A stretch of DNA of 44,840 nt. It comes from a virus. Location of the stretch: the UHGV virus genome UHGV-0716684. The stretch is one strand, 5' to 3'. The notes beneath the pieces are model-generated. The model was not told the origin of the DNA. It worked only from the letters and a program-made list of their open reading frames with translations, and ran no database searches. This document shows positions 8,464 through 11,584 of this stretch, in pieces; the first letter of the stretch is position 1, and each line of letters begins with the position of its first letter. The translations under genes and the position numbers were made by a program.

Positions 8464-8492
8464 TTGCACACTAAGATAGAATAGGCTACTAT
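8464..8492 (+). promoter_or_regulatory. promoter TTGCAC-N17-TACTAT with GAATAG-N4-CTATT operator-like palindrome
   Basis: TTGCACactaagatagaataggcTACTATtcat upstream of gene at 8525. Confidence 0.5.
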
Positions 8493-9638: not shown

Positions 9639-9869
9639 ATGGTTATTCGTAAAGGCTTTTATGAAGATGGTAATTTCGATAGTAAAGTAAATGGGGAGTA
9701 CGTAAGCTACGAAGACTACGCGAAACTCGAAGCCAAACTTCTGGAAATAAAAGCAGCAGCCAGTTGTCTTGTGCGAGAAGCGAGTAAGGTGTATAGCGAT
9801 TATAGTGACGTTATAGCGCCTGAGTTTGTAGACCAGCAAACCATATACGAACTAGGTATTCTGCTATGA
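9639..9869 (+). CDS. hypothetical protein, paralog 2 (YVSYEDYAKLE motif)
   Basis: ATG at 9639 with GGAAGGGG upstream; shares motif and start context with previous gene. Confidence 0.5.
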   Translation: MVIRKGFYEDGNFDSKVNGEYVSYEDYAKLEAKLLEIKAAASCLVREASKVYSDYSDVIAPEFVDQQTIYELGILL

Positions 9870-10159
9870 GCCTCGCAACTGACATCCTGAAACGAAGCGG
9901 CCTTGCGCCGCTGTCGCCGAGAGCTAAAACACAGATATACAAGCGTCGGGGTAACGCGCTGTACCCAGAGATTCAGGCCAGGCGCAAAGCTGTCCGCGCC
10001 TGTGGATTCCAGAACGGGAAGGCCGTGAATCTCGGTGAGTTCAGGACAAAGGAACGCGCTGCAATCTCTAATCGGTTATTTAATTACTGGAAATCGCTGG
10101 GATACGATGATATCCCGACGAAACCACAGAGACGACAATACATCTGGAGACATAAATAA
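9866..10159 (+). CDS. basic hypothetical protein
   Basis: 97 aa ORF. Confidence 0.5.
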   Translation: MSLATDILKRSGLAPLSPRAKTQIYKRRGNALYPEIQARRKAVRACGFQNGKAVNLGEFRTKERAAISNRLFNYWKSLGYDDIPTKPQRRQYIWRHK

Positions 10160-10234
10160 ACCGCTATTAGGATAATTCCTACCCGTGGTATCCTCCAGTT
10201 ACTGCATACTTAATATGCACCTGGAGGATTCATC

Positions 10235-10543
10235 TTGGATAAATTTACTGAAACAGTGACGGGGTGGCTTCTCGCTGCCGCACTAGCCGGAGGGGTAATC
10301 GGCCTACGGCAACATAAGTCCGTTATTTCTGGCCCTATTGATGGCTTCTGCTTTATCGCTACCGGCTTCACCTGCGCCGTATTTGGTGCGCCTCTCGCGG
10401 CCCAATGGTTTGGTATTACCGGCGAACGCGAGATAGCTGGCCTGGGCTTCATTATCGCTATTCTCTGGATGCCTATCTATTCCCGCCTCTCCGGTATCGT
10501 CGCCGGAGAATACATCGCACGTCGAGGAGACCCGGATGAATGA
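10235..10543 (+). CDS. putative holin (three hydrophobic segments)
   Basis: 102 aa membrane protein immediately upstream of lysozyme; TTG start 6 nt after GGAGGA. Confidence 0.55.
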   Translation: MDKFTETVTGWLLAAALAGGVIGLRQHKSVISGPIDGFCFIATGFTCAVFGAPLAAQWFGITGEREIAGLGFIIAILWMPIYSRLSGIVAGEYIARRGDPDE

Positions 10544-10808
10544 GTTATTCTGGTTCGGCGGTATGCTGGCAATCGGTGGCACATCGCTGTTTAATGTATA
10601 CCACCCCAGTGTTGACGATGGGTTATTTGGTCGGGTGCTCTACATCCTGACCGCTATCGTTTGCGCTGCCGGATGCATCCACCTGTTACAGGGCAGCATG
10701 TCGCCAACGCTGCCTGGGACATTAATCACATTAGTTGCGCTGCGCCAGATTCGTCAGGCGTGGCTGTCATACGGAGGACATAAGCGTGTCTCGAAACATT
10801 TCAGATAA
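10536..10808 (+). CDS. putative holin/antiholin-like membrane protein (two hydrophobic segments)
   Basis: 90 aa; overlaps holin stop and lysozyme start. Confidence 0.5.
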   Translation: MNELFWFGGMLAIGGTSLFNVYHPSVDDGLFGRVLYILTAIVCAAGCIHLLQGSMSPTLPGTLITLVALRQIRQAWLSYGGHKRVSKHFR

Positions 10809-11271
10809 TGGGTTGCATTTTACCGCTGCATTTGAGGGATTCCGCGGAACTGCGTATCGCGCTACACCGAATGAGAAGTACCTTACAATAGGCTACGGAA
10901 GCTATGGCCCTCATGTTAAGGCTGGGCGGACCATCACTCCAGGGCAAGGCCTCCTGTTACTGAATCGTGATATGGCTAAGGCCGTAGCTGCGGTTGACGC
11001 AGCAGCGCACCATTCACTGACGCAGGCGCAGTTTGATGCTGTTTGCGACCTGGTCTATAACGCGGGCGCTGGCGTGATTGCTGCTACTACGGGCACGGGT
11101 AAGGCGCTGCGTTCTGGTGATATCACGACGCTGCGGGCTAAGCTGGCGCTGTTCATCAACCAGAATGGTAAACCGTTACTTGGTCTGCGTCGCCGTACTG
11201 CGGGTCGTCTGGCGTTGTTCGACGGTAAACAGTGGCAGGAGGCGGAGGCTATCGGGAGGGCTGTTAAATGA
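10786..11271 (+). CDS. endolysin, lysozyme (glycoside hydrolase family 24-like)
   Basis: GTG start 8 nt after GGAGG; motifs AAFEGFRGTAY and TIGYG typical of phage lysozymes. Confidence 0.8.
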   Translation: MSRNISDNGLHFTAAFEGFRGTAYRATPNEKYLTIGYGSYGPHVKAGRTITPGQGLLLLNRDMAKAVAAVDAAAHHSLTQAQFDAVCDLVYNAGAGVIAATTGTGKALRSGDITTLRAKLALFINQNGKPLLGLRRRTAGRLALFDGKQWQEAEAIGRAVK

Positions 11272-11397
11272 TGGACGAATACGAAGGCGTTTAGTAAACT
11301 TACATCACGCTGCTTGTGCTTGCATACTAAGCCCTGGTAAACCTGAAGCAGCAGCCCAGGCGGTGGAGACTGCGTAGGGTTCAGGGGCTTATGCCCG

Positions 11398-11428
11398 AAA
11401 CCCGGACCGCGAATCCGGGTTTTATTTT
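11398..11428 (+). terminator. rho-independent terminator
   Basis: cccgga-ccgcgaa-tccggg followed by ttttatttt. Confidence 0.6.
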
Positions 11429-11501
11429 ACCAATTGACACCTAAGACTAATCAGACGATACTTAAATCACCTCCTGTTCCATCCCTCTGCTCTCCAGTTT
11501 T

Positions 11502-11534
11502 ATCCCGGCCCTGACCCAGCCGGGATTTTTTTTA
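11502..11534 (+). terminator. rho-independent terminator (second, tandem)
   Basis: atcccggc...gccgggat followed by tttttttt. Confidence 0.6.
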
Positions 11535-11555: not shown

Positions 11556-11584
11556 TTGACTATTATCCTCGACCCTATTATATT
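11556..11584 (+). promoter_or_regulatory. sigma70-like promoter TTGACT-N17-TATATT
   Basis: Located after the tandem terminators and before the small-gene block at 11619. Confidence 0.45.

Follow-up and report, generated by a model that had tools for sequence, protein, structure and literature searches.

The DNA analysed in this study (hereafter the window, meaning the whole 44,840-nucleotide stretch, UHGV-0716684) is the genome of a coliphage of the genus Kagunavirus, subfamily Guernseyvirinae. Over the region 9800-11400, which carries a three-gene lysis cassette, it shares 92.6% identity with Escherichia phage vB_EcoS_XY1, and matches to this region were found in 131 phage records. The following features are located at the cassette and in its surroundings:

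8464-8492, + strand: TTGCAC-17-TACTAT, the nearest upstream copy of a promoter-like motif and a likely source of read-in transcription
10160-10189, + strand: conserved upstream block accompanying the holin module and starting right after the stop codon of the upstream gene
10235-10543, + strand: first holin-like gene, TTG start, 102 aa with three hydrophobic stretches
10536-10808, + strand: second holin-like gene, 90 aa (phrog_2508 'holin', E = 5.8e-33)
10786-11271, + strand: endolysin gene, GTG start (placed according to the XY1 annotation), overlapping the second holin-like gene where the latter ends
11398-11428, + strand: intrinsic terminator closing the lysis transcription unit, AAACCCGGA-N7-TCCGGGTTT followed by TATTTT

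The product of the first holin-like gene (for brevity, the holin gene) matches phrog_2359 'holin' (E = 3.6e-29) and has no match in Pfam, and the TTG at 10235 is the earliest possible start of its 102-aa open reading frame (10235-10543). The ATG of the second holin-like gene overlaps the stop codon of the first (ATGA), and the endolysin matches Pfam Phage_lysozyme (E = 1.2e-25). In the GenBank record of phage Schulenburg the two small genes are annotated 'antiholin/holin' and then 'holin/antiholin'; both are thus labelled either way, and the first gene may encode either the true holin or its antiholin. At a metagenomic locus (L061, 1501-2313) the first holin-like gene is followed directly by the endolysin gene and the second is absent, while the hairpin described below and the TTG are kept. 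Beyond the endolysin gene of the window a second canonical intrinsic terminator is present at 11505-11531, and behind each of the two terminators lies a consensus-like promoter (11434-11462, TTGACA-17-GATACT; 11556-11584, TTGACT-17-TATATT).

Transferring the annotated starts of XY1 onto the window gave 62 mapped gene starts, only three of which are not ATG: the holin gene (TTG, 10235), the endolysin gene (GTG, 10786) and the large terminase gene (GTG, 14011). Two of the three are thus located in the lysis cassette, and the TTG of the holin gene is the only one among the 62. It is kept in every Kagunavirus sequence examined, whereas at the homologous MDK... position the Dhillonvirus codon is ATG.

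The holin gene's ribosome binding site is part of a hairpin whose arms form a perfect 9-bp inverted repeat with 22 nt in between. The hairpin, the start region and an overlapping promoter-like element are arranged as follows:

10186-10194, + strand: extended -10-like element TGgTATCCT, overlapping the 5' arm, with a predicted transcription start at about 10201
10190-10198, + strand: 5' arm, ATCCTCCAG (RNA AUCCUCCAG), carrying CCUCC, a core identical to the anti-Shine-Dalgarno (anti-SD) of 16S rRNA
10199-10220, + strand: apical part with an internal loop, an inner 6-bp stem and a CUUAA loop
10221-10229, + strand: 3' arm, CTGGAGGAT (RNA CUGGAGGAU), containing the Shine-Dalgarno sequence (SD) GGAGGA at 10223-10228
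10230-10237, + strand: pyrimidine-rich (U/C) spacer UCAUC, then the TTG start codon

The first-pass annotation of this DNA had described a 9-bp stem at 10188-10196 and 10222-10230, with GGAGGA in its second arm 6 nt before the TTG at 10235. The stem is real, although its coordinates had been placed 2 nt and 1 nt off, and the position of GGAGGA with its 6-nt spacer is borne out. The inner stem consists of TGCATA (10203-10208) paired with TATGCA (10214-10219), and the base of the stem can be extended weakly by 3-4 bp. Calculation of the folding energy, which had been suggested as a check, gives a stability that is not marginal: the hairpin by itself folds at -18.4 kcal/mol, a 55-nt segment folds at -19.9 kcal/mol with a z of -3.9, and a 101-nt segment reaches a z of -5.6, where the z values refer to dinucleotide shuffles, none of which folded as well as the native sequence (0 of 200 for either segment). 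Inverted repeats of 9 bp are in themselves no rarity in this genome, as 19 hits were found at 14 distinct places in the window (7.0 +/- 3.6 in dinucleotide shuffles); what sets this one apart from chance is where it lies, how well it is conserved and that it recurs in other lineages. A perfect 9-bp stem of -14 to -21 kcal/mol at 37 C does not resemble the weak, mismatch-rich SD hairpin of an RNA thermometer, and the Rfam search matched no family, giving only a chance snoRNA match (E = 0.82) elsewhere in the gene. A further hairpin predicted in the window immediately upstream (10160-10189) was rejected as a conserved structure, because variants break its pairing and L061 is without it.

To place the holin start among the other genes, two quantities were calculated for the 62 mapped starts: how much energy it costs to open the ribosome site, and how probable it is that the SD is paired. 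In the context from -70 to +35 the holin start ranks first, with an opening cost of 16.9 kcal/mol where the median of the genome is 6.9, and its SD is paired with a probability of 0.94 against a median of 0.54. Across the four folding contexts that include the 5' arm, the holin start holds rank 1 or 2 among 61-62 gene starts and the pairing probability stays at 0.90-0.95. The earlier proposal that this SD is sequestered is therefore upheld by folding prediction, according to which the holin-like gene has the most occluded ribosome site among the 62 gene starts. In the context from -35 to +35, from which the 5' arm is excluded, the SD is mostly unpaired (P = 0.28, rank 51), and therefore it is the 5' arm that is responsible for the predicted occlusion. 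A second GGAGG (10289-10293) is located inside the holin gene, where codons 19-20 encode a conserved Gly-Gly. Forcing the SD open allows this copy, in longer contexts, to pair with the 5' arm instead, and the opening cost depends on context for this reason.

Conservation within the genus was studied with 41 unique Kagunavirus sequences (40 IMG/VR loci, XY1 and the window). In the arms one of 18 columns is variable, compared with 87 of 101 third-codon positions of the holin gene (Fisher p = 2.5e-11); one of the nine columns varies in the 5' arm and none of the nine in the 3' arm. The lone change, A to G in the 5' arm of L040, retains a G-U pair. Strong conservation is likewise seen in the apical region and over the first ~25 nt of the holin gene, so the conservation within the genus is not specific to pairing and may partly reflect a recombination junction. 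The apical part is nevertheless not essential, since its inner stem has an A.C mismatch (TACGCA) in most relatives, leaving most Kagunavirus relatives with a 3-bp inner stem, and the whole part is replaced in L061 and in Dhillonvirus.

The block upstream of the hairpin also belongs to the conserved unit. Homology among phages with a different upstream gene starts at ~10158-10165, and the gene upstream of the block is a 97-aa ORF in some phages and an HslV-like peptidase gene in others. The HslV-family peptidase gene, ~420 bp long, sits directly upstream of the hairpin block in many relatives (L005, L006, L009, H32, H36 and H45, among others), and the block is therefore regarded as a module junction. 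Such a setting invites the explanation that the element works in DNA, as a palindromic site of a phage regulator or as a recombination junction for alleles of the lysis module, with the RNA fold being a by-product. The whole 50-nt block, loop included, is indeed far more conserved than the adjacent coding sequence, and it lies at a module boundary where the upstream gene varies. The kinds of changes seen in the stems of related phages speak against it.

Pairs were compared between genera by anchoring on the start codon with guidance from structure, because the cross-genus MAFFT alignment put the arms out of register; such a comparison is weaker than an independent alignment. In L061, the holin of which is 67% identical, the apical region is wholly different and the stem is kept, with two transitions in the 5' arm that both create G-U pairs. 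The G-U changes of L040 and L061 retain pairing only in the + strand RNA, as they break the DNA palindrome and would give A.C mismatches in RNA of the opposite strand. Dhillonvirus (HK578, SO-1 and 12 IMG/VR loci; holin 47-50% identical) has a 12-bp stem of another sequence, in which both partners differ from Kagunavirus at six of the nine shared pairs with the pairing retained, and in a divergent Dhillon-like lineage (L115/L122) one U-A pair has become C-G. In Kagunavirus, L061, HK578 and L115 alike, the stem has its base at exactly -6 relative to the start codon. KW1E and the Klebsiella phages KLB16 and KLB22, whose holins are ~42% identical, have an 8-bp G+C stem in the corresponding place, based at -9. 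As far as sequence comparison can tell, the preservation of pairing through G-U and double changes indicates a selected structure of the + strand RNA. The protein family is narrow (22 clusters), which puts deeper covariation statistics out of reach, and a search of genome contigs found no relatives in prophages or bacterial genomes.

A DNA-level element is very unlikely in the light of these changes, given that the wobbles of L040 and L061 keep the pairing of the + strand RNA and destroy the DNA palindrome, and that Kagunavirus and Dhillonvirus share the geometry of the stem and not its sequence. Candidate sites for a regulator were also rejected: for the 16-nt palindrome TTAGGATAATTCCTAA (10167-10182), which shortly precedes the hairpin, the window offers no convincing second copy that would make it a repeated operator, and AATAGT..CTATT, a motif repeated elsewhere in this genome, has no copy at the holin gene. 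The lineages bear equally on the idea of a processing site, at which RNase III or another nuclease would cut the interrupted helix, remove the 5' arm and so activate holin translation. The stacked helices of the window amount to ~19 bp with an internal loop, and they resemble phage RNase III sites such as those of the lambda N leader and the T7 early mRNAs. However, with an inner stem of 3 bp in most Kagunavirus phages, a plain 12-bp stem in Dhillonvirus and an 8-bp stem in KW1E, the helices of the family are too short for typical RNase III substrates, and no Rfam family was matched, so that processing is an extremely improbable explanation.

Relatives of the hairpin have the appearance of terminators. 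The hairpins of HK578 (12 pairs followed by TTTTT), L061 (13 pairs followed by TTATTTT) and KW1E and KLB16 (8 pairs followed by T7-8) are all called terminator-like by the scan, the homologous hairpin of L115 also fits the terminator pattern, and the GenBank records of KLB16 and KLB22 carry a terminator annotated over the holin ribosome site. The hairpin of the window is not called by the scan. Instead of the uninterrupted G+C-rich stem with a short loop that is found in the relatives, it has 22 nt with an internal loop between its arms, and its tail UCAUCUUGG contains 5 T in 8 only when the closing A-U pair is counted. Its tail score of 1.5 marks the poorest U-run of the family, compared with 3.2-5.4 in the relatives (4.1-5.4 in Dhillonvirus and KW1E). 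The relatives' hairpins also score positive on a discriminant that combines hairpin and U-tail, but this formula is approximate, sensitive to stem boundaries and negative for the canonical terminators of the window, and only the relative tail scores were used. The duplex between SD and anti-SD is the strongest of the family in the window (-9.3 kcal/mol; HK578 -3.9, KW1E -5.7).

Could the hairpin then be purely a Rho-independent terminator of the upstream operon, with G-rich 3' arms that merely happen to resemble SDs? The hairpins of HK578, L115, KW1E, KLB16 and L061, with a G+C-containing stem followed by a U-rich tract, fit the pattern of intrinsic terminators and are positive on the approximate discriminant, and a terminator is annotated there in KLB16 and KLB22. 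The window departs from that pattern in its 22-nt interrupted apex, its poor tail UCAUCUU and its consensus SD 6 nt from the start codon; moreover, this hairpin, uncalled by the scan, is unlike the genome's own canonical terminators. The base of the stem is placed exactly at -6 from the start codon in four lineages, and the 3' arm of Kagunavirus is a full GGAGGA, the strongest SD of the family, which argues that the link with translation is selected. Together with the fact that a source of holin mRNA would still be needed, this makes a terminator with incidental SD overlap unlikely.

A possible source of that mRNA overlaps the 5' arm itself. TGgTATCCT is the sole exact match to TGNTATCCT within the window. 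Its TATCCT agrees with the consensus at four of six positions, there is no convincing -35 element, and the sigma-70 scan makes no promoter call. Across Kagunavirus the n position is G or C, whereas no variation is seen in the TG, the TAT and the final T; of these, the TG and the T of TAT are invariant in spite of being outside the 9-bp stem. The pattern TGnTAT..T is common to Kagunavirus (cgTGgTATCCT in the window), L061 (caTGgTATCCT) and Dhillonvirus (cgTGaTATAGT). A Dhillonvirus variant (L119/L120) has TATAAT in place of TATAGT at the hairpin base, ~40 nt before the holin ATG, which is a better -10 gained at the expense of one G-C pair of the stem. In KW1E a full promoter-like site, TTGACC-17-TACTAT, is called by the scan and ends 1 nt before the stem, and the same site is unchanged in KLB16 despite a regional identity of 80%. 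A different sigma-70-like candidate, GAGACA-18-GATAAT at 10147-10176, was rejected, as its -35 is replaced in phages with the HslV-like gene upstream and its GATAAT is lost in L061.

With the usual distance of 7 nt the predicted starts are at ~10201 in the window, 1112 in HK578 (L044) and 783 in KW1E (L118). These positions lie at or just beyond the end of the 5' arm, and transcripts starting there could consequently not form the hairpin. Removal of the 5' arm lowers the calculated opening cost: in HK578 it is 18-20 kcal/mol with the arm and 1-4 kcal/mol without it, and in KW1E 13 and 5-6 kcal/mol, respectively. In the window the probability of SD pairing falls from 0.93 to 0.28-0.67 and the opening cost from 10-17 to 8.5-10.7 kcal/mol, with no change of the cost in the +60 context; this is the smallest effect among the three phages, and the site is still fairly structured.

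As for transcription from upstream, the scan found no terminator-like site on the + strand between the promoter-like motif at 8464-8492 and the holin start codon. Transcripts from there should therefore enter the hairpin, and on this reading of the sequence the lysis cassette should be the tail of a transcription unit that is read from upstream. The recognisable promoters of the genome are repeats of TTGACA/TTGCAC-17-TACTAT/TATAGT and are unlike TGgTATCCT. Their spacer and -10 are overlapped by a palindromic motif, AATAGT-N2-CCTATT, which has 24 strand matches against 2.8 expected, with 14-nt matches at 133, 3229, 3273, 6871, 8480, 11551, 20382, 20473, 29689 and 41683. Two Kagunavirus genome papers give promoters predicted by PHIRE, and the fBC-Eco01 paper assigns this motif to a phage RNA polymerase; since Kagunavirus phages encode no RNA polymerase, it is more likely that the sites are host sigma-70 promoters that share an operator. 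Farther upstream of the hairpin, CTGGAG (10144-10149) was considered as an anti-sequestor of the 5' arm and rejected in view of its CTGGCG variants and its absence from phages with the other upstream gene. The sole RNA-seq study of a Kagunavirus phage groups the lysozyme gene with the bulk of the 'middle' genes (PMC12645636).

How could lysis genes be expressed from behind such a hairpin? The reading that we prefer, tentatively and just short of calling it probable, is a composite of insulator and internal promoter that follows the logic of T4 gene e. The hairpin, placed where the lysis cassette begins, would act in cis on RNA of the + strand. On transcripts that hold both arms, having been read in from upstream, the CCUCC of the 5' arm would pair with the GGAGGA of the SD, the 30S subunit would be largely excluded, and the TTG-started gene, probably together with the two overlapping downstream genes, would barely be translated. 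In this way the hairpin may insulate the lysis genes, as a terminator-type element in Dhillonvirus and KW1E-like phages and mainly at the level of translation in the present Kagunavirus. The productive lysis mRNA would start inside the hairpin, at ~10201, from the weak extended -10 at 10186-10194, and without the 5' arm its SD would be freer. From the predicted folds and motifs we infer that upstream transcripts arrive at the hairpin, that their translation is blocked in vivo and that the internal promoter fires.

The first-pass annotation had favoured a throttle on holin synthesis that would affect the timing of lysis. That the SD of a TTG-started gene is held in a stable and conserved hairpin stands; a constant throttle on all holin mRNA is not established. 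Under such a throttle every holin mRNA would carry the hairpin, and rare breathing or standby loading, combined with the weak TTG, would lead to slow holin synthesis and late lysis. The strong SD (-9.3 kcal/mol), the TTG and the hairpin, all conserved in Kagunavirus, fit a permanently low translation equally well, and the only TTG among the 62 mapped starts belongs to this very gene. The poor U-run suggests that upstream transcripts read through, the internal promoter is weak on paper, and the ribosome site is structured even without the 5' arm. There is also a precedent in the stem-loop over the SD upstream of lambda S, where altered translation of the holin shifts the time of lysis (bioRxiv 10.1101/2025.05.14.654169).

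On the other hand, a throttle leaves unexplained why TGnTAT..T is conserved outside the stem, why KW1E and KLB16 have a promoter-like site and why the hairpins of the relatives have the form of terminators. A hairpin of -14 to -18 kcal/mol should, moreover, cut initiation by orders of magnitude and not modestly: the relation between stability and translation of de Smit and van Duin reportedly puts the decrease in this range at several orders of magnitude. Since initiation should thus be nearly abolished, the productive mRNA probably comes from the overlapping promoter-like element. It is for these reasons, the terminator-like sister hairpins, the -10-like element at the 5' arm and a block that would be near complete, that caution is needed with a constant throttle, which we regard as doubtful although a serious alternative, and that an insulator or switch is preferred.

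The preferred composite has its closest counterpart in T4 gene e, in which translation of the long early transcripts is ~100-fold lower and the late promoters are located in the DNA coding for the hairpin's 5' strand (PMC3014915); similar inhibitory hairpins precede T4 soc, 49 and I-TevI (McPheeters et al. 1986; review PMC3014915). As in gene e, a lysis gene lies downstream of earlier transcription and has an SD that long read-through transcripts hide in a helix; the DNA for the 5' strand contains a promoter-like element, short transcripts from which would be without that strand, and the fold is conserved in related phages. The differences are that the gene is holin-like and does not encode a lysozyme, that the candidate promoter is a sigma-70 extended -10, and a weak one in the window, instead of the T4 late TATAAATA, and that the hairpin of the relatives doubles as a putative intrinsic terminator.

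The second comparison is with lambda S, in which the 'sdi' stem-loop (nt -21 to -7) governs the access of ribosomes to the Met1 SD (bioRxiv 10.1101/2025.05.14.654169). Both stem-loops are directly upstream of a holin gene with the SD on the 3' side, and in lambda the rate of translation sets the timing of lysis. The short stem of lambda splits initiation between two in-frame starts, giving the antiholin S107 and the holin S105, whereas the holin and antiholin candidates of the window are two separate overlapping genes and its stem, at least 9 bp long, is far more stable. The gene does not show a dual-start motif either: it begins TTG-GAT-AAA..., and the next in-frame codon of a start type is GTG at codon 8, which has no SD and is absent from the N-terminus of Dhillonvirus.

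The coat-gene hairpins of MS2 and Q-beta are similar in that the SD is located in the 3' side of a local hairpin, the stability of which determines the frequency of initiation; they belong to single-stranded RNA genomes and have no tie to the start or termination of transcription. It was reportedly with such RNA phage coat-gene hairpins that de Smit and van Duin quantified the effect of structure on translation.

Hairpins that sequester the SD before lysis genes are already textbook knowledge in T4 and lambda, and the searchable literature gave no description of this hairpin element for Kagunavirus or Dhillonvirus. Of most interest is the proposed way in which promoter, terminator-like hairpin and ribosome site overlap in three lineages. 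A three-in-one element, in which the -10 lies in the 5' arm, the hairpin is terminator-like and the 3' arm is the ribosome binding site, is possible rather than probable for the three siphovirus lineages Kagunavirus, Dhillonvirus and the KW1E/KLB-like phages. If true, the cassette would be expressible only from its own promoter and read-through from earlier operons would be killed at the levels of both transcription and translation, so that holins would be under a sigma-70 counterpart of the control known from T4 gene e.

Kagunavirus and Dhillonvirus phages are often isolated as candidates for the therapy of E. coli infections, and their lysis genes lie midway in a long run of genes on the same strand and not in a dedicated late operon. 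A hairpin that silences the holin on read-through RNA would, if true, explain how premature lysis is avoided in such an arrangement, and mutations in the stem or in the promoter would then provide a simple handle on lysis time and burst size.
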